In this document: piece after piece, positions 1-12,312 of the stretch | How the letters are laid out: each line of letters begins with the position of its first letter | Numbering within the stretch: the stretch's first letter is position 1 | Origin: Candidatus Spongiisociaceae bacterium | GTDB lineage: Bacteria; Actinomycetota; Acidimicrobiia; Spongiisociales; Spongiisociaceae | NCBI GenBank assembly: GCA_965202665.1 | Contig: OZ241841.1 | Span: 128,001-192,000, forward strand | Length of the DNA: 64,000 nt | Direction of reading: 5' to 3' | The notes under the pieces: model-generated | Databases searched by the model: none | What the model was told of the DNA's origin: nothing | Seen by the model: the letters and a program-made list of their open reading frames with translations, nothing else | Translations under genes and position numbers: made by a program

Positions 1-311
1 ATCCGGCCCGGGTCGGCCTCTTTCAAAGGCTTCAGTTGGCCCAGGTTGCCGTACAGCCGGTTGTCGGCGTTTTCCCGGATGGTGCAGGTGTTGATGAAAA
101 TCACATCCGCCGTTTCCATCCGGTCGGCGGGGGTCATGCCGTCCGATTCGAACAGGCCCGCCACCCGTTCGCTGTCATGCTCGTTCATCTGGCAGCCGAA
201 GGTGCGCAGGAAGTAGCGGCGCCCGGTGCGGGTGGGCGGGCGGGATTCGGCCCGTTCCGCGGCGGCGGGGGCCGGTCGGCGGCGGGGTTCGTCTAGAAAA
301 ACGGTGGTCAT
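1..311 (-). CDS. miaB: tRNA-2-methylthio-N6-dimethylallyladenosine synthase MiaB, 5' part (runs off window)
   Basis: Not in the ORF track. Manual translation from ATG 311 gives MTTVFLDE...[22 protein letters not shown]...[24 protein letters not shown], the MiaB UPF0004 N-terminus. GAGGA RBS upstream. Confidence 0.92.
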
Positions 312-327
312 CGGCGGCGTTTCCTCG

Positions 328-1857
328 CTAACGGGCGTAGTCGGTGACACGCACTTCCCGAATCACCGTCACCTGAATGTGATTGGAGTAGCGCAGGTCG
401 TTTTCCATGCGGCGGGCCACCGAATGGGCCAGGTGGGCGGCGGCCAAGTCGTCCACCTCCCCCGGGTCCACCACTATCCTAACCTCCCGGCCGGCCTGCA
501 TGGCGTACACTTGCTCCACCCCGCTGAACTCCCGCACCAGCGACTCTATTCTTTCCAGGCGGCGCATATAGGATTGCGCGGTGTTGTTGCGGGCCCCCGG
601 ACGGGATGCGGACACGGTGTCGGCCGTCTGTACGATGATGGACAGCAAAGTTCGGGGCTCCACTTCGTTGTGGTGGGCTTCTATCCCGTGCACCACCGCC
701 GGGTCCTCCCCGAAGCGGCGGGCTATCTCGGCTCCGATCAGCGCGTGGGAACCCTGCACTTCGTGGGTGACCGCCTTGCCGATGTCGTGCAAGAAGGCGG
801 ACCTTTTCACATCGGCCGGGTCGATGCCCAGTTCGGCGGCCAGCATTCCGGCCAGGTGGGCGGATTCGATCAGATGGTTGAGCACGTTCTGCCCGTACGA
901 GGTGCGGTATTTGAGGCGGCCCAGCAGGGTGATCAGTTCGGGGTGTATTTGGGAGGCCCCCGCTTCCAGCACCGCCCACTCCCCGGCGTCCCGCACCGAC
1001 TGCTCCACTTCCGTCTGGGCTTTCTCGTAGGACTCTTCGATGGAGGCGGGGTGGATTCGCCCGTCGGCCACCAGGTTCTCCAAAGCGAGGCGGGCGATTT
1101 CCCGGCGGACGGGATCGAAGGAGCTGACCATCACCATTTCCGGCGTGTCGTCCACCACCAAGTTGACCCCGGTTACCGACTCGAACGCCCGGATGTTGCG
1201 GCCTTCCCGGCCAATGATGCGGCCTTTCAGTTCATCGTTGGGCAAGGACACGGCGGAAACGGTGGTTTCGGCGGTGACCGGGGCGGCCAAGCGTTCGATG
1301 GCGGTGGTGAGTATGCGACGGGCCCGGCGGTCGGCTTCCTCCCGCACCCGCAGTTCGGTTTCCCGGACCATCAACATCCCCTCCCGGCGGGTTTCTTCCT
1401 TGATTTGCTTGAGCAGTTCCTCTTTGGCGGCGGCGGCGTCCATGAGGGAAATCCGCTCCAGGCGGGCCCGGGCGTCGTGGCCTATCCGTTCCGCTTCCGA
1501 ACGCAGGTCGTTCGCTTCGGCTTCCCGGCGGGCCGCCATCTGCTCCCGCAAAGCCAGGTTGGAGGCCCGTTGCTCCAGGGTCTGCTCCCGTTGCGCCAAC
1601 CGGTCCTCGGAGGACGCCAACTCCATCCGCCGCTGATCCATCTCCGTCTGTCCCCGCTCCAGGTACTCGTCCACCCGGGCCCGCCCCTCGTCCTCGGCGC
1701 GGTCCATCAAACGTTGCGCCCGCCGCCGGGCCGCCGCCCCCGGATCCTCCAGCACGTTCCTCCGCACGCGCCGCGCCGCCGCCAGCGCCCAAAGCGACAA
1801 CCCCAGTATCGCCCCGCACGCCCCGACCGCAATCACCGACGTAAGACTGACTTCCAT
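328..1857 (-). CDS. rny: Ribonuclease Y
   Basis: N-terminal TM helix, coiled coil, KH motif [15 protein letters not shown] motif LHDIGKA. Start placed at ATG 1857. Confidence 0.96.
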
Positions 1858-1964
1858 TACCTTCCCAAGTTTGGTCACCGCCCCGGCCCTCCGACCAAAG
1901 CACCCCCATCCTAACAAAACCCATTACCAAATTGAAACCGCCTTAGGATAAGGAAAGGAACCAG

Positions 1965-2993
1965 CTAATCCTCCGACCAGGAGAAAGGCAAAGAAGGAGA
2001 CATTTCCGTTACGTTACCAAAACATAGTCCACTCTCAATCTGCGGAGGTGGACTTCTATCAAAAAGTTCGTATCTTACGGTAGGGTGGGGAGGTTTTATG
2101 TCAGGGATGCCTATACCTTCCAAAGTATCCTGGCCTTTATTTGCCTGACGTATTATGTTAGCTTTAGCCTGCATCATAGGAATAATATTCCTAGAATAAG
2201 ATTCATATATGTATTCCATAATAAGATCACCGACGGGGTGGTCTGTTGCAAAAATTAATGTATAAATTGGTATATTGTTATCTCTTATCCCTAGCGCATG
2301 TGTTTTCTTATATTGCAATATTGTCTCTAGCCTTTTTCGATATAATTTGATCAATTCTTTTCTCATATTACTTGCATCCAAAAGGCCACTACGACGACGC
2401 TGATATATTGAAACCCAGTCCTCTGTCCCGTATACGCTATTTACTAAATCAATACTACTCTTTCCTTTCGCAACTTCAGCACCTATAACACGAAGCAGTG
2501 CTGGTTCAGGAAATAGTATGAATAACTCAATTTTAGGCTTACCTCTATCTTTCCATTTAGCTAATTTCTCCAAAGTTGCCCATTTAACTTGAAGTCCACA
2601 AGGATCAAGAAAAGCAATTGTAGGTGCTGATCTGTTCTTTATATACTCTAAACCCATATCAATTGTATTATTACAGTCTCCAGGCAACACCTTCCAATCG
2701 CGAACATTGTGAGATACGCTCGTCTGAATTGATGATCTCAGGACTTCCGCTTTATCTCGCTTTTCGAATAATGCTACACGCGTGAAAGTCGGCTCGACAT
2801 TAAAAGCGATCTGCGGCGAGCCGGGGAAGTATCCTTCCTCGTCACGCCTTTTATTACGATATGACCCAGCAAACAGATCAAGATATATCCTATCGCGGGC
2901 ACTTTTGCTAGCAATTGCAAATGGCCTTAGGTAATCCCATAGAATATCTATCTTGGTCTCTGACCACCAAGACCAATCTCTTTGCTCTGGCAT
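1965..2993 (-). CDS. tcmP: Three-Cys-motif partner protein (TcmP-like, SAM-binding fold)
   Basis: Motifs KIDILWDYL, YLDLFAGS, FLDPCG, ELFILF, YTLIFAT.H..G. Directly downstream of a DUF5131 gene. Visibly AT-rich. Confidence 0.82.
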   Translation of the reverse strand: MPEQRDWSWWSETKIDILWDYLRPFAIASKSARDRIYLDLFAGSYRNKRRDEEGYFPGSPQIAFNVEPTFTRVALFEKRDKAEVLRSSIQTSVSHNVRDWKVLPGDCNNTIDMGLEYIKNRSAPTIAFLDPCGLQVKWATLEKLAKWKDRGKPKIELFILFPEPALLRVIGAEVAKGKSSIDLVNSVYGTEDWVSIYQRRRSGLLDASNMRKELIKLYRKRLETILQYKKTHALGIRDNNIPIYTLIFATDHPVGDLIMEYIYESYSRNIIPMMQAKANIIRQANKGQDTLEGIGIPDIKPPHPTVRYELFDRSPPPQIESGLCFGNVTEMSPSLPFSWSED

Positions 2994-2999
2994 ATATCG

Positions 3000-3746
3000 T
3001 CACAACTTCCTTGCCGGTGGCATTTCGTTGTGGGTTTGGCCTTGGAGGGTGCGGCCGCCGGATTTGGGGGTGCGGCCGCCCCATTGTTTAAAGAAAAAGG
3101 GGACTTGGGCGGTATCGCACTGGTCGCGTAGGTCAGTAGCCCACTCTCCTTGCATGGGGCGGGCGCCGGGGCCGCTCTCCCCGCCTACGATCATCCAGTG
3201 GATGCCGTCTAGGTCAAGATTGGGTAGCGGTCCCAGCAACGGTTCGGCGCTTATGAACCTTACGGCCGCGTCCACTGTCCGCAGGTGGTCGATTCTGAAT
3301 TTGTAGCGGGCGGTTTCCACGCTCACGCCCATCCACAGGTTGGGCGGCCACGCCAGTTTCTGACCGAACCGGGCCAGGCGTTGGGAACGTTTGGTTAGCA
3401 ACTGGTACTGATGTTGCGGCGTGTCGGCTATCACCTCGAACACCCGGCGTATGTAATCGTCGGGCACGTCCTTGTGGAACAGATCGCTCATGGAGTCCAC
3501 GAAGATGGTGCGGGGCTTGCGCCAGGAACGGGGAATATCCAATGCGTCGGGATGCAATGTCATTCCAAAACCGGGTCCGCTGGTGCGGGGGTCGCCGTCG
3601 TTACGATACTTTGCCACCCCCATCGCTTGCAATCGCTTGGCCAATGTGAGGGCGTAGCAGTTGTCGCATCCCGGCGAGGTGCGGTCGCAACCGGTGGTCG
3701 GATTCCACGTTGCTTCCGTCCATTCTATGGCGCTCCTGTCAGACAT
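3000..3746 (-). CDS. DUF5131 (phage Gp37/Gp68) family protein with three-Cys motif
   Basis: SAIEWTEATWNPTTGCDRTSPGCDNCYA (CX6CX2C), FVDSMSDLFH, LLTKR, SAEPLLG, IVGGESG, FFFKQWGG. Confidence 0.92.
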   Translation of the reverse strand: MSDRSAIEWTEATWNPTTGCDRTSPGCDNCYALTLAKRLQAMGVAKYRNDGDPRTSGPGFGMTLHPDALDIPRSWRKPRTIFVDSMSDLFHKDVPDDYIRRVFEVIADTPQHQYQLLTKRSQRLARFGQKLAWPPNLWMGVSVETARYKFRIDHLRTVDAAVRFISAEPLLGPLPNLDLDGIHWMIVGGESGPGARPMQGEWATDLRDQCDTAQVPFFFKQWGGRTPKSGGRTLQGQTHNEMPPARKL

Positions 3747-4413
3747 TTTTCCCACTCCGCGCCCGCCCGCCATTAACTTCCAGGCCCCAGGCGCGCCAGC
3801 CTTCGACCTGTTGCCGGGCGAACAGCTCGATCTTCTTCTGTGCGGGAAACATTTGTTCGATGCGTTTGCGCACCTCGGCGGGTTTCTCCGAATGGGCGCC
3901 CCGTTTGTATCTCAAAAACTGGCGCACGTTGCGCGCCCCGCGCGGACTGGGAATTTTGCCGCGTTTGAAAACCAGGCACATCTCGCACTGGCTCATCGTG
4001 TAGAAGCCGGGGTTCACCCGTATCTTGTCCCACACGAATGCCACCGTCGCCCACGCAAAGCCCCATGTTTTGCCCAGGTCTATAGCCTGATCCAGGTGCG
4101 GGTTGGTGGCCCACATGAACAGCAGGCAGTCGTCCGCCGCGATGTCGGGCACGGCTAGGCCCTTCAAGTGGTCCAGCGTAACGGTCGGGTAGTGCCGCAT
4201 CGCTCCGCCCGTGTCCCGGTTGCCCGCTCCGGCATGTTGCAGTTGCCCTTTGTAATCCCAAGGCGGGTCGGCGTAGATGATGTCAAACTGGTCTTGCGGG
4301 AGAGCGGGGAAGCCGCCGGTGTCTCCGTTCCATATCTGGTCGAACTCGGCGCGGGTCAGTTGCCCGGGCTCCGCCTCCGTCGGCTGCAACGCCCCTTTAC
4401 CCGTGATGGTCAT
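3739..4413 (-). CDS. MT-A70 family (N6-adenine-type) methyltransferase
   Basis: IIYADPPW catalytic motif, HYPT, LFMWAT, FVWDK, HSEKP, KIELFAR. GGAGGG RBS before ATG 4413. Confidence 0.9.
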   Translation of the reverse strand: MTITGKGALQPTEAEPGQLTRAEFDQIWNGDTGGFPALPQDQFDIIYADPPWDYKGQLQHAGAGNRDTGGAMRHYPTVTLDHLKGLAVPDIAADDCLLFMWATNPHLDQAIDLGKTWGFAWATVAFVWDKIRVNPGFYTMSQCEMCLVFKRGKIPSPRGARNVRQFLRYKRGAHSEKPAEVRKRIEQMFPAQKKIELFARQQVEGWRAWGLEVNGGRARSGKNV

Positions 4414-4425
4414 TTTGTCCCTCCG

Positions 4426-4465
4426 CTTTCGTCCGGGGCGCATCCGGCGTCGCCCCGGACGAAAG
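4426..4465. promoter_or_regulatory. Perfect 15-bp inverted repeat (10-nt loop) between recA and the MT-A70 RBS
   Basis: CTTTCGTCCGGGGCG (4426-4440) / CGCCCCGGACGAAAG (4451-4465). No U-tract follows on the minus strand. Confidence 0.6.
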
Positions 4466-4500
4466 TCAGCATATATCCTCGGCTTGCCGCCAACCGGGGG

Positions 4501-5547
4501 TCAGGCGGGGGTTGGGGCGGGAGCTTCGGTTTGGGTTTGGTCTGTTTCGGGGGCGGGTTCGGGCGGGGGGTTGACCGAAGCCAGGACTTGGGCTTGGAGT
4601 TGCATGGCCACCTCCGGGTTCTCCCGCAGGAAAGCCTTGGCCTTCTCCCGGCCCTGACCCAACTGGTCGCCGTCGAAGGTGTACCAGGCGCCGCTTTTCT
4701 TCACGATGCCCTCCGCCACCGCCACATCCAGCAGGCTCCCCTCCCAGGAAATGCCTTTCCCGAACATGATGTCGAACTCAGCCACCCGAAACGGAGGGGC
4801 CACCTTGTTTTTCACCACCCGCGCCCGCACCCGGTTGCCGATCTGAACGCCCCCGTCCTTGATCGCCTCAATCCGCCGCACGTCGATCCGCACGCTGGAA
4901 TAAAACTTCAACGCCCGCCCACCCGGCGTCACCTCCGGCGATCCGTACACCACCCCAATCTTCTCCCTAAGCTGATTGATAAACACCGCCGTGGTGGACG
5001 ACCGGTTTATTCCCGCCGTCAACTTCCGCAACGCCTGCGACATCAACCGAGCCTGCAAACCCACATGGGTGTCGCCCATCTCCCCCTCAATCTCCGCCCG
5101 CGGCACCAACGCCGCCACCGAATCCACCACCACCACATCCAAGGCGTTGGAGCGCACCAGAATATCGGCTATCTCCAAAGCCTGCTCCCCGGTGTCCGGT
5201 TGCGACAGCAGCAGCTCGTCGGTGTCCACCCCCAATGCCTGCGCGTACACCGGATCCAACGCGTGTTCGGCGTCCACGAAAGCCGCCAACCCCCCGTTGC
5301 GTTGCGCCTCCGCCACCACATGCAAAGCCAACGTGGTCTTCCCGCTCGACTCAGGGCCGTACACCTCCACCACCCGCCCCCGGGGCACCCCCCCGATGCC
5401 CAAGGCGATATCCAAGGCCAAAGCCCCGGTGGAGATGTGCTCCACCCTCAAGTGGGTCCCCTCGCCCAACTTCATGATCGCCCCCTTGCCGAACTGCCGC
5501 TCAATCTGCGACATCGCCCCATCCAAAGCCTGACTCTTTTCCTTCAT
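4501..5547 (-). CDS. recA: Recombinase RecA
   Basis: GPESSGKTT Walker [33 protein letters not shown] before ATG 5547. Confidence 0.98.
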
Positions 5548-5643
5548 CGTACCATCTCCTTCAGTCTCCACGACGCAACCTGCGCCCACTCCGCCCGGAA
5601 CCAAACCCCGGCCCCGGTCGGCGTTTTCTCGCCTGTGGAGCAC

Positions 5644-5666
5644 AAGGTACGGACTGCCTGTGACAA
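5644..5666 (-). promoter_or_regulatory. Putative RecA-NDp / PafBC-type DNA-damage promoter (proximal recA promoter)
   Basis: Minus strand TTGTCA-CAG-GCAGTCCG-TACCTT fits the spacing of the mycobacterial tTGTCRgtg-N8-TAnnnT motif. Confidence 0.6.
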
Positions 5667-5837
5667 AAACGGGGGAGGGCCGTTTCCCGACCCGTGCCCG
5701 CTTTGCTTACTCTCCTTCCTTCCGCCCGTCGGCAGGCCGCACCCGCCTTAAATTACACGGATGTTTTCAACATCCCCGGCAATTCGTCCTCGCGCCCTTC
5801 GGCGACGTGAAACCAATATGCCAAATTTCCGCGGCGA

Positions 5838-5866
5838 ATACTACCCGAACGTATGTTCGGTTACAA
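5838..5866 (-). promoter_or_regulatory. Distal recA promoter with LexA (SOS) box in the spacer
   Basis: -35 TTGTAA, 17 nt, -10 TAGTAT. The spacer contains CGAAC-GTAT-GTTCG (5846-5859), the Gram-positive/actinobacterial LexA box. Confidence 0.85.
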
Positions 5867-5980
5867 GGATTTCGGTTCAGATGATGGCCTGGAAGGAGGC
5901 AAGGCCTTTGCCCGTATCCCGGAAACCTTTGTGGGGCAAGGGAATTCGTCGAGGAGGGGCGGTGCGGAACCCAGCGCGGA

Positions 5981-6580
5981 TTAGAGGGGGAAAGTTTCCA
6001 AAATTTCGTATCGGGCCGGTTTTCCGCCCAGGAAACTGCGGTACAGCGCCATCTCCCTCACCGTCATTTTGACGCCCAACCGGGCCTTGGCCGAGCCGGC
6101 TGGTTCGTCCCGGCCGACTGCGCCGGCCGCTCGCAGATCGGCGGGGGGGCGAATGCGGGCCAAAGTTACGTGCGGATGGAAGGGGCGTTCCTCCGGCGGG
6201 AGCCCGGCCGCCCGCGCCGCCTCCTCCGCTATCGCCGCCAACCGCTCCAAACCTTCCCGCCCTTCCTCCGCTCCCAGCCAGGCGACGGTCGCCCGGGACG
6301 GTTTCGGAAACGCCCCCAGCCCGCCCAACCTCGCGCTGAAAGGCGCGGGCTTTCCCGCCCGGTCCAAGGCGGCCAGCAGCCGCTCCGCAACCGGCCGCTC
6401 CACCTCCCCCGCGAAGCGCAGGGTGATATGGAAGTTTCCGACCGGAACCGGGCGGGCCGGGCCCGGCGAGGAGGAGGCGCCCGTCGGCAAACCCAGGCCG
6501 GAGCGCCATCGGTCGACGGCCATCTGAATCTCGTCGGGGACGGGGACGGCTGCGAACACCCGCAACCGGCCCTCACTCAT
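5981..6580 (-). CDS. thpR: RNA 2',3'-cyclic phosphodiesterase (2H family)
   Basis: Two HxT motifs (FHITLRF, PHVTLAR). Conserved cinA-thpR-recA order. Confidence 0.9.
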   Translation of the reverse strand: MSEGRLRVFAAVPVPDEIQMAVDRWRSGLGLPTGASSSPGPARPVPVGNFHITLRFAGEVERPVAERLLAALDRAGKPAPFSARLGGLGAFPKPSRATVAWLGAEEGREGLERLAAIAEEAARAAGLPPEERPFHPHVTLARIRPPADLRAAGAVGRDEPAGSAKARLGVKMTVREMALYRSFLGGKPARYEILETFPL

Positions 6581-10501: not shown

Positions 10502-11719
10502 ATGGATGGCAAAAGGTTCATCCGAACCATCCGCTTGGAGAACATCCTTTCCTACGGTCCGGACAGGACCGAGTTAGAACTGCAACCGTTGAATGTACTG
10601 ATTGGCCCCAACGCCTCCGGCAAATCCAATCTGATCGAGGCTCTGTCGCTACTTGAATCCGCTCCTGGCAATCTGCAAAGGCCCATAGAAATGGGAGGTG
10701 GTATTAGAGAATGGTTATGGAAAGGACAGGACGATTTACCTATTGCTACGATAGAAGTTACCGTAGAACATCCCAACCAACTTTCGGATATTCGATATAA
10801 ACTATCATTTTCAGAGACAAATCTGGGAGGTTTTAAATTGCAAGACGAAACAATAGAAGGAACAAAAAACAAAAATAAAAACGGAGAACCACCCTTTTAT
10901 TATCAATACAATGAAGGCAAATCAGTGCTTTATTCTAAAGATATTTCAAAAAAATCAAAATGGAAGCAAAGGAGTTTGGAAATAGATTTAAGTTTCGAAC
11001 AATCCATTCTATCTCAGTTTCGTGACCCGGTGGTGTTTCCAGAGCTTGATTACTTGAGTGATCAATTTAAAAGTATATGGTTTTACCGTGAATGGGACCT
11101 TGGACACTATAAACCACCCCGTATCCCTCTACCAATTGATTTTCCCGTATCCTATCTATTCGAAGATGCTTCTAATCTTAGTTTAGTTTTAAGTACTCTA
11201 TTAAAAAACCCTGAACTAAAAGAAAAAATTATTAATTATATGAAGATTTTTTATCCAAATAGCACCGATATCGGTTTTGAAGTAAAAAGTGGAGGTGTTC
11301 TCATGCACTTACATGAACGAGGTCTGAGACATCGAGTTCCGGCGACTAGATTATCAGATGGAACTCTACGCTTTCTCTGCTTACTAACTATCTTATTGCA
11401 TCCTGATCCACCATCCATAATCTGTATAGAAGAACCAGAAGGCGGCTTACATCCGGATATTATTCCGGAAGTAGGAAAACTGCTAGTTGATGCATCATCT
11501 CGTAGTCAGATTATTGTTACCACTCATTCCGATATTCTAGTTGATGCCTTATCCGATTTTCCAGAATCGATTATCGTCTGCGAAAAACCCGAAATATCTA
11601 CTCAATTGCAACGATTAGATCGAGAAGAAATCGAAAAGTGGCTCAGCGCATACCGTGGAAAAGAAAACCAACTTGGAACAATGTGGACAAATGGAGAAAT
11701 AGGGGGAAACCGATGGTAA
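10502..11719 (+). CDS. ABC-type / AAA_21 family ATPase (defence-associated)
   Basis: Walker A IGPNASGKSN, signature LSDGT, Walker B CIEEPEGGLHP, H-loop VTTHS. Low GC. Confidence 0.88.
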   Translation: MDGKRFIRTIRLENILSYGPDRTELELQPLNVLIGPNASGKSNLIEALSLLESAPGNLQRPIEMGGGIREWLWKGQDDLPIATIEVTVEHPNQLSDIRYKLSFSETNLGGFKLQDETIEGTKNKNKNGEPPFYYQYNEGKSVLYSKDISKKSKWKQRSLEIDLSFEQSILSQFRDPVVFPELDYLSDQFKSIWFYREWDLGHYKPPRIPLPIDFPVSYLFEDASNLSLVLSTLLKNPELKEKIINYMKIFYPNSTDIGFEVKSGGVLMHLHERGLRHRVPATRLSDGTLRFLCLLTILLHPDPPSIICIEEPEGGLHPDIIPEVGKLLVDASSRSQIIVTTHSDILVDALSDFPESIIVCEKPEISTQLQRLDREEIEKWLSAYRGKENQLGTMWTNGEIGGNRW

Positions 11720-12312
11720 ATCGAATTATATGTATCGAGGGTGGAGGCCAGGGTAAGGGAGCGAGCATCGCTCACCGTAAAGGCTTTGTATCTTTTGTAA
11801 AGAGGGCTGGTTTGCAAGGAAAAATGCCCAAAATTGTACTCTGTGGTAGTCGCTACAAAGCGTACAGTAAGTTCAAAAAGGAGAGTGAGTATAGTCAAGA
11901 TGTTATACTCCTCGTTGATGCTGAGGCAACAGTTGCTACTAACCAACCGTGGGAACACCTTAAGAAAGAAGATGGGTGGGAACGCCCTGATGGTACTACC
12001 GACGAGCAATGTCATCTTATGGTTCAAATTATGGAATCCTGGTTTCTGGCGGACAAGCAAGCACTAGCAAAATATTACGGACGCCAGTTTAATAGGAGTG
12101 CACTTCCAAAAAATCAAAATATTGAAGAAATTTCTAAAGTAGATGTAGAAGAAGGATTAAAGCAAGCAACTAAAAAAACTCAAAAAGGTGAATACAGTAA
12201 GGGATCACACAGTTTTAAGATTTTAGCACTATTAGATCCTGAAAAAGTACGAAAGGCCTCCCCATATGCAGACCGCTTTATCAAAACATTGTTAGGGCAA
12301 AGCAATGCCTGA
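11713..12312 (+). CDS. DUF4276-like protein (putative TOPRIM-like effector)
   Basis: [42 protein letters not shown] 11713 overlaps the ATPase stop. Confidence 0.78.

Follow-up and report, generated by a model that had tools for sequence, protein, structure and literature searches.

The window analyzed here is a 64,000-nucleotide (nt) stretch of the genome of a Candidatus Spongiisociaceae bacterium (assembly GCA_965202665.1, contig OZ241841.1, positions 128,001 to 192,000 of the forward strand). Named neighbors, run labels, and a pafA-pafBC-like locus point to a sponge-associated actinobacterium of the Acidimicrobiia as the likely host. Between its recA and rny genes lie three genes, which encode an MT-A70 methyltransferase, a DUF5131 protein, and a TcmP protein. 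An initial annotation had proposed that they form a single multi-step base (hyper)modification or defense pathway. Our analysis points to two units in one slot: an orphan methylase of the MunI type, and a DUF5131-TcmP pair that seems to have replaced the nuclease of such methylases and that likely modifies DNA upon damage. We hold this reading with about as much confidence as doubt. The three genes are probably neighbors by replacement and not members of one pathway. The observations on which the argument is built are the gene anatomy, the family matches, the neighborhood counts, the junction remnants, and the motif counts.

Gene anatomy of the slot

The genes of the slot and its edges, in window coordinates, are as follows.

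328-1917, minus strand: rny (RNase Y), the downstream flank
1965-2993, minus strand: TcmP, 342 amino acids (aa); matches TIGR04474 and PDC-M41A; RlmJ-like fold predicted to bind S-adenosylmethionine (SAM), with a DLFAG motif I and a DPxG motif IV without an aromatic residue
3000-3746, minus strand: DUF5131 / Gp37-Gp68 protein, 248 aa; matches PF07505, PDC-M41B, and PDC-M30B; radical-SAM-type, with CX6CX2C
3739-4413, minus strand: MT-A70 methyltransferase, 224 aa; likely a MunI-type DNA adenine methyltransferase, nuclease-less, DPPW intact, predicted target CAATTG
3768-3773, minus strand: ATG GCG, the probable remnant of codons 1 and 2 of the MunI-type nuclease gene that was likely replaced, in the frame of DUF5131; edge of the swapped block
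4501-5547, minus strand: recA, the upstream gene of the three-gene block

The co-orientation of the three genes, their coordinates, and their junctions were verified on the minus strand. The MT-A70 stop overlaps the DUF5131 ATG (ATGTCTGA at 3746-3739), and DUF5131 is separated from TcmP by 6 nt (2994-2999). The family assignments of the initial annotation hold in searches with hidden Markov models (HMMs): MT-A70 matches PF05063 (1.3e-20), DUF5131 matches PF07505 (1.1e-99), and TcmP matches TIGR04474 (2.6e-46, 158.7 bits; cut-off 53). The PADLOC models matched are MTase_II, PDC-M41A (1.2e-28), PDC-M41B (1.2e-109), and PDC-M30B (3.1e-105). All four motifs that had been pointed out (DPPW, CX6CX2C, DLFAG, and DPCG) are found in the three proteins, but the cysteine of DPCG is not conserved. 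It is present in 6 of 126 aligned TcmP proteins and was rejected as a catalytic residue. The tcmP gene is AT-rich, with a GC content of 0.40 and 0.34 at third codon positions, against 0.61-0.66 in its neighbors.

Neighborhoods of the methylase and of DUF5131

For the methylase we inspected the best 80 of 83 genome loci with MT-A70 relatives (40-80% identity, many phyla; some flanks short). Their recurrent neighbor is a restriction nuclease of the MunI family, 175-200 aa long. PF11407 scores above cut-off in nine of nine neighbor proteins tested, one of which matches PDB entry 1d02 at E 2.2e-61. A local HMM places a MunI-family nuclease at 28 of the 80 loci (18 near full length, 10 partial) and gives no match at 52. 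None of the 80 carries an adjacent MT-A70/DUF5131/TcmP triple. DUF5131 adjoins a methylase relative at a single locus (L068), which is recA-adjacent and without TcmP, and at one further locus DUF5131 and TcmP lie 3.5 kb off, with other genes between.

For DUF5131 the sample consisted of the best 80 metagenome and best 80 viral loci (more exist), together with 21 class-wide loci with flanks of about 1.5 kb. TcmP stands beside DUF5131 at 60 of the 80 metagenome loci, 30 of the 80 viral loci, and 16 of the 21 class-wide loci. The triple occurs at 0 of the 160 metagenome and viral loci and at 0 of the 21 class-wide loci. The MT-A70 HMM found nothing near DUF5131 at the metagenome (0/80) or class-wide (0/21) loci, and one weak match at the viral loci (1/80), which Pfam assigns to N6_N4_Mtase. 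In this comparison, which the initial annotation had named as one that could refute it, MT-A70 is thus not beside DUF5131/TcmP outside this genus.

With the triple at 0 of 181 other DUF5131 loci and 0 of 80 MT-A70 loci, the reciprocal counts lead us to reject a conserved three-gene system, and they do not support the three-gene (hyper)modification pathway of the initial annotation. The triple is found only in close relatives at this slot.

DNA methylases and restriction-modification (R-M) genes of other kinds are frequent beside DUF5131, and in 4 of 14 loci from relatives type I-like genes, read from translations, lie directly upstream of it. The distribution of the pair is patchy (24 of 301 genomes of the class). 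The genome carrying the window (G000, 94% complete) has two DUF5131 and three TcmP genes in total. Its second DUF5131 (G000:C1:2138889-2144951, L051) faces a TcmP that carries a GMT-wHTH domain; an HD-domain gene and a 546-aa TcmP, preceded by a strict PafBC-type motif, lie upstream.

The DUF5131-TcmP pair corresponds to PDC-M41 and PDC-M30. PDCs are PADLOC predictions made from embedding in R-M, BREX, and DISARM loci (excerpt of Payne et al., bioRxiv 10.1101/2024.01.29.577857); PDC-M41 and M30 are not named in the main text of that report, whose supplementary tables define the PDC systems. In the literature searched, which covered few subscription papers, no study on the function of DUF5131 or TcmP turned up, and neither there nor in that main text did we see a test of PDC-M41 or PDC-M30. 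In the accessible parts of PMC12445080 and PMC12429752 TcmP appears only in tables, and those of PMC10853773 and PMC7641849 contain nothing on the pair. The pair is a catalogued defense candidate with predicted anti-phage activity. Of the earlier defense claim, the part that concerns the pair gains support from the matches to candidate defense models, and the part that made MT-A70 a pathway member is not supported.

Probable exchange of the nuclease for the pair

The absence of an adjacent nuclease gene, noted earlier, is true of the window, yet close relatives carry a MunI nuclease in this very slot; the gene is likely missing here because it was replaced. In G000, PF11407 gave no match (a search without positive control), and tblastn with three close nucleases returned nothing under E 0.4. 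Two studies supplied contigs (runs X6 and X11) that join the 1937 and 3768 sides of the window by 654 other letters (at a likeness threshold of 85, with flanking sides of 85 and 255 letters). The triple itself, its TcmP diverged, is present on contigs in runs X4, X9, and X13. TcmP is 63-65% identical on four of five contigs whose methylase is 95-98% identical, and 86% identical on the fifth.

A set of 54 listed close methylases (78-98% identical), with co-location judged from contigs of equal length, is sorted by its C-termini. Among those with a short C-terminus, 11 of 24 are on a contig as long as one with a 175-aa MunI nuclease; among those with a long C-terminus, 10 of 30 are on a contig as long as one with TcmP, one of these being the window itself. 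There are zero crossed cases among the placed methylases. By the same equal-length match, the triple is present on at least nine other contigs of close relatives.

The junctions carry traces of the exchange. In tandem methylase-nuclease loci (e.g., L100), the nuclease start overlaps the methylase end, and the ATG GCG of the window at 3773-3768 sits precisely where homology to the alternative allele stops. A relative (G001) has 21 nuclease codons, fused to the methylase, directly before DUF5131. This remnant scores 56-66, and the next best among 27,872 windows scores 22-24. No TcmP match was found in G001. The swapped-in fragment starts 22 nt ahead of the DUF5131 ATG and encodes the last 8 residues of the methylase. 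In a tree of 63 methylases, the nuclease state and the TcmP state need two changes each; its root is not firm and a single origin is still possible, and therefore no order of events was taken from the tree.

From the compared sequences, the methylase and nuclease likely came first and the DUF5131-TcmP pair replaced the nuclease, an inferred history that is well supported. In this genus, a methylase-nuclease pair would first have become established between recA and rny. From just past its start codon, the nuclease gene would then have given way to a DUF5131-TcmP fragment that brought no promoter, and the methylase would have been retained, as it often is.

In G001 (L336, L050), rny lies about 550 kb from recA, and an operon resembling carbon monoxide dehydrogenase genes follows DUF5131. 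A rearrangement therefore accompanied the loss of TcmP.

The methylase and its predicted target

The target of the methylase was approached through site depletion, which is indirect evidence for CAATTG methylation by MT-A70, and the specificity given here is a prediction. At 17 intact-nuclease loci (the near-copy L135 dropped), CAATTG is the rarest of the 64 palindromic hexamers relative to expectation, with 13 sites seen and 47 expected. At the 52 nuclease-less loci it is not depleted (38 seen vs 42 expected). We take CAATTG to be the MunI site and M.MunI to be the name for this methylase type. The MT-A70 protein of the window is likely a MunI-type methylase, predicted to act as an orphan N6-methyladenine (m6A) enzyme on CAATTG. 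Iyer et al. grouped M.MunI with the MT-A70 clade (excerpt of PMC4738411), and the MunI structure is cited in PMC4081073 (excerpt). For methylases of this type, our literature search turned up no methylome. The methylases in plasmid and phage records are all distant, at most 43% identical.

MunI nuclease genes lie in pieces beside intact methylases at L089, L102, L103, L104, L113, L120, L122, L140, and L143; this is repeated nuclease loss across unrelated sponge-associated and other lineages. At L124 (5956-7128), methylase and MunI nuclease form one open reading frame (ORF) across a long dinucleotide run (THTH...), which is either a fusion or an assembly artifact. Four genomes of the family carry MT-A70 proteins of a second, separate clade, whose N-terminal region resembles a helix-turn-helix (HTH) (L148-L151).

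Predicted folds of DUF5131 and TcmP

DUF5131 is a radical-SAM-type protein, modeled with the partial TIM-barrel fold of radical SAM enzymes. The cysteines of its CX6CX2C motif (C20, C27, and C30 of the 248-aa form) are invariant in 118 aligned sequences, which were preselected for such a motif. C210, a candidate equivalent of the hydrogen-donor cysteine of spore photoproduct lyase, is nearly invariant. The model, built with the 118 sequences, reaches a pLDDT of 95. Among solved structures it comes nearest to spore photoproduct lyase (Foldseek E 4.6e-4; Z 14.2, root-mean-square deviation 2.9, 196 aligned), followed by viperin and RlmN (Z 11.3-11.2), and all top VIA rows are radical SAM enzymes. 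RadicalSAM.org places DUF5131 in Megacluster-5-2 with CX6CX2C, and spore photoproduct lyase in 5-3 of the same megacluster (excerpt of PMC9477430). By sequence, no match of DUF5131 to spore photoproduct lyase was found in Pfam or NCBIfam at E 0.1 or by profile among PDB sequences, and single-sequence and profile searches against PDB sequences gave nothing significant. The earlier comparison of the three-cysteine motif with a radical SAM site thus agrees with the motif, the model fold, and the database placement. From motif and fold, we propose that DUF5131 may bind a [4Fe-4S] cluster and cleave SAM reductively.

The model of TcmP (pLDDT 89, 126 sequences) is closest to RlmJ (Foldseek E 3.2e-6), and ranks 1-13 are all RlmJ or its homolog 2oo3; Trm1 and LCMT-like folds are also similar. 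The two proteins have xLDxxAG and GS motifs in common, a likeness that is not significant by sequence, and TcmP gave nothing significant against PDB sequences in single-sequence or profile searches. Motif IV of TcmP reads DPxG or DQxx, with the D invariant and the third position variable in 126 sequences. The GMT-wHTH domain of other TcmP clades has no match in the window TcmP. The methyltransferase fold of the model is in line with the SAM binding suggested earlier, and TcmP likely binds SAM.

A predicted DUF5131-TcmP complex scored 0.44, against 0.00 for the best control. Of 157 solved complexes, 116 attained the mark, as did 2 of 215 mismatches; at 0.60 or below lie only 18 of the 157 and both mismatches. 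Runs agreed in at least 0% of contacts, and the partners had pLDDT values of at least 81. The prediction weakly suggests that DUF5131 and TcmP bind each other.

Putative DNA damage promoters

The regulatory features found on the recA side of the block are listed here.

4426-4465, no strand: perfect 15-bp inverted repeat, loop of 10 nt, in the interval from recA to the ribosome-binding site of the methylase
4468-4473, minus strand: possible -10 hexamer TATGCT of a methylase promoter, weak, by eye; TACACT at the equivalent spot in G001
5644-5665, minus strand: damage promoter motif of the PafBC / RecA-NDp type, TGTCAC-N10-TA-N3-T, upstream of recA
5846-5859, no strand: LexA-box-like palindrome CGAAC-N4-GTTCG, upstream of recA

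The PafBC consensus is tGTCgg(N10)tA(N3)T (excerpt of PMC8635444), and the motif corresponds to RecA-NDp in other Actinobacteria (excerpt of PMC8223512). The motif TGTCA[C/T]-N10-TA-N3-T, common to the upstream regions of relatives, fits this consensus. Of 14 relative loci, 8 have the published pattern within about 115 nt upstream of DUF5131 (background of 0.0075 per scanned window; six other spacings 0-1). In a hold-out set from other families it was found at 6 of 20 loci (background 0.011; eight other spacings 0), and among public loci at 5 of the 32 whose clade most resembles the window DUF5131 and at 0 of 109 outside that clade. These counts overstate the significance, as kin are not independent. 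Directly upstream of the window pair there is no such motif; the sole match on this strand in 1-6200 is the one upstream of recA (5665-5644). Among recA loci, a looser form of the motif together with a GAAC-N4-GTTC box is upstream in 26 of 26 examined (4 of 30 not anchored).

In G000, strict matches number 49 at spacing 10 vs 4-11 at other spacings. Among 28 ORFs scanned behind the motif are six HNH/DUF222 genes, three DNA methylases, one each of Lhr, RmuC, and SSB-like, and the HD gene that precedes a second TcmP; several of the 28 have no relation to repair. Two adjacent WYL genes, pafB-pafC-like, stand beside a gene that, from its translation, we take to be pafA-like. The gene lhr, which carries the motif in G000, is PafBC-dependent (excerpt of PMC8682763). 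Many DUF222/HNH genes and three DNA methylase genes of G000 directly follow the motif, and their start codon is often 7 nt past it, which makes leaderless transcripts likely.

These patterns suggest that, in Acidimicrobiia, DUF5131-TcmP would carry its own PafBC-type damage promoter at part of its loci. The initial annotation had sought a damage link in read-through from recA. The link as such gains support from the promoter motifs, and read-through into the block is plausible, though the hairpin may block it.

G000 also has a second recA (G000:C1:1276078-1277244, L337), with identities of 98% (protein) and 96% (DNA) to the first. It was copied with about 130 nt of upstream DNA, with the PafBC-type motif in and the LexA box out, and adjoins HTH and HipA-like genes and a dnaK-grpE-dnaJ-hspR cluster (labels from translations).

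Other features around the slot

The methylase start at 4413 (ATG) has a GGAGGG site and gives a length that agrees with homologs; a start at 4443 is disfavored, because that position falls within the hairpin and homologs have 224 aa. The 15-bp hairpin sequence occurs once in G000 and is without a U tract, and G001 has a hairpin of different sequence at the equivalent place. Candidate roles are those of an attenuator, an operator, or an mRNA hairpin. A scan for sigma-70 promoters and terminators from recA to the methylase gave nothing above shuffles and no U-tailed terminator. Repeats that would mark a transposon-like boundary or a target duplication were sought in 1800-6000, and none was convincing.

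The block had been described as occupying the recX position. It does lie between recA and rny; nevertheless, RecX (PF02631) is above cut-off in 0 of 31 genomes of the group, with 8 of 14 controls positive, and therefore nothing indicates that recX was displaced. Displacement is rejected, and the phrase is a positional description only. In relatives such as G003 and G005, rny directly follows recA. Six family members (L338-L343) have after recA, instead of rny, a 330-400 aa gene with an Arg/Gly-rich N-terminus, and the site 3' of recA is variable across the family.

Elsewhere in the window (10502-12312), a low-GC AAA_21 (AbiEii-like) ATPase and a DUF4276 protein form a candidate defense or toxin-antitoxin module. 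A repeat of about 360 nt (G000:C1:124227-124590), with at least eight near-complete genomic copies (78-95% identity), lies 3.4 kb ahead of the start of the window, next to a transposase-like fragment.

Discussion

In the mechanism that we favor, which is less well supported than the history, DUF5131 would hold a [4Fe-4S] cluster via CX6CX2C and cleave SAM to a 5'-deoxyadenosyl radical, which would abstract a hydrogen from a DNA base, by analogy with spore photoproduct lyase. TcmP, fast-changing between strains, would pick the target and may add a methyl group. The pair plausibly joins a damage-induced radical enzyme to a variable SAM-binding selector of targets on DNA bases. Its likely role would be the non-cutting disablement of mobile DNA (prophage, phage) that is activated under DNA damage. 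The window copy would owe its transcription to the methylase promoter and/or to recA read-through, and copies elsewhere to their own damage promoter.

Several findings count against this reading. The pair's activity, substrate, and transcription are proposals drawn from sequences and models. DUF5131 often occurs without TcmP, as at 50 of the 80 viral loci and in G001. TcmP is without the aromatic residue of the DPPY motif, and its methyl transfer is therefore uncertain. As to regulation, the motif is missing at 6 of the 14 relative and 14 of the 20 hold-out loci. It is also found in G000 before genes without a link to repair, namely those for RseP, S-layer proteins, an SDR, a nitronate monooxygenase, and glycogen synthase. 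Exact LexA-type boxes lie upstream of DUF5131 at 4 of 138 public loci, with about one expected for those two patterns, and read-through from recA may be stopped by the 15-bp hairpin ahead of the methylase. With respect to the methylase, CAATTG is only mildly low in G000 (0.72, rank 14 of 64), its depletion ranks 2nd and 7th when loci are split by GC (7th being the seven low-GC loci pooled), and low-GC control loci also show 0.63. The co-location with the nuclease rests on equal lengths of contigs, by which 21 of the 54 methylases were placed and 33 were not, and the 654-nt alternative allele is inferred to encode a MunI nuclease, not read directly. Finally, the fold of spore photoproduct lyase, at 13% identity, fits repair equally with defense.

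That last point leads to the strongest rival. With the same history, the pair could be a direct-reversal or lesion-processing repair module of the damage regulon without a role in defense, in which an enzyme like spore photoproduct lyase would act on some lesion and TcmP would be a lesion sensor or a SAM-binding helper. The closest solved fold, the common megacluster (excerpt of PMC9477430), the damage-type promoters, and the place behind recA all suit a repair module. On the other hand, the patchy distribution (24/301), the low GC and rapid change of TcmP, the nuclease slot, and the R-M neighbors suit genes of conflict better. We therefore regard repair as rather unlikely and favor defense against damage-activated mobile DNA over it. 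It is improbable that the pair is neutral, decaying cargo and that the exchange was selected only for removing a costly nuclease. Such decay would agree with the loss of TcmP in G001, with the 193 and 212 aa forms on some matched contigs, and with the second DUF5131 and two more TcmP genes in G000, but DUF5131 is full length with all three cysteines. TcmP is moreover full length on six of nine matched contigs and 317 aa long on one more, and the short forms are perhaps cut by contig ends.

Two further explanations keep the methylase and the pair together. The pair may have replaced the nuclease in function as well, providing a damage-inducible, nuclease-free restriction in which radical chemistry would disable DNA that is without m6A-CAATTG, while MT-A70 marks self. 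Its entry into the nuclease slot at the start codon and its overlap with the methylase stop would fit such a system, as would the intact methylase, 95-98% conserved beside TcmP, and the other copies of the pair in or next to R-M loci, the kind of embedding by which the PDC models are defined (excerpt of bioRxiv 10.1101/2024.01.29.577857). However, this methylase is at 0 of 181 other DUF5131 loci, and it is without a nuclease match at 52 of 80 loci, so that no new partner is required to explain why it was kept. TcmP is absent from G001, three CAATTG sites lie inside tcmP, and TcmP varies where the methylase does not; we consider nuclease-free restriction highly improbable. Least probable of all is that MT-A70, DUF5131, and TcmP constitute one multi-step hypermodification pathway starting from m6A. 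The tight gene coupling, the catalytic-looking motifs, all intact, and the triple on at least nine other close-relative contigs (by equal length) and in runs X4, X9, and X13 speak for it. Nonetheless, this recurrence is limited to one slot in close kin, where it alternates with a nuclease, and elsewhere the parts regularly keep company with other partners, a different one for each.

As a pair, DUF5131 and TcmP are widespread and catalogued but chemically unexplained in the literature searched, and the PafBC-type promoters in Actinobacteria point to conditions for assaying it. A genus with two alleles at one site, methylase with nuclease and methylase with DUF5131-TcmP, offers a natural test of whether the pair substitutes for restriction. 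Nuclease-free restriction, if true, would have been assembled by the swap of an effector gene at the nuclease's own start codon.

Comparison with known systems

Spore photoproduct lyase is the best structural match of the DUF5131 model. It differs in having CX3CX2C and 340 aa, compared with CX6CX2C and 248 aa in DUF5131, at 13% identity. Unlike the lyase, DUF5131 has a partner with a methyltransferase fold, and its Pfam matches are DUF5131 and a weak GP88 only. RlmJ, the 23S rRNA m6A2030 methyltransferase, has in common with the TcmP model a class I SAM-binding fold with motif I. The motif IV of RlmJ is DPPY. In contrast to this housekeeping enzyme, TcmP is mobile, variable, 13-15% identical, and without (D/N/S)PP(Y/F/W).

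The PafBC regulon and this lineage have in common the 22-nt architecture, its position upstream of recA, and pafBC-like genes, whereas mycobacteria read tGTCgg and the window lineage TGTCAC or TGTCAT, with induction predicted only. Like the MunI type II R-M system, the slot holds a circularly permuted methylase of the MT-A70 type, whose relatives pair with MunI nucleases at loci depleted in CAATTG. Unlike that system, G000 is without the nuclease, of which probably the start codons alone are left. PDC-M41 and PDC-M30 (Payne et al., bioRxiv 10.1101/2024.01.29.577857) consist of TcmP and DUF5131, and the window genes match them, adjacent and co-oriented. Compared with these candidate systems, the window pair is without a promoter motif of its own and, located behind recA, occupies the place of the nuclease in a type II R-M system.

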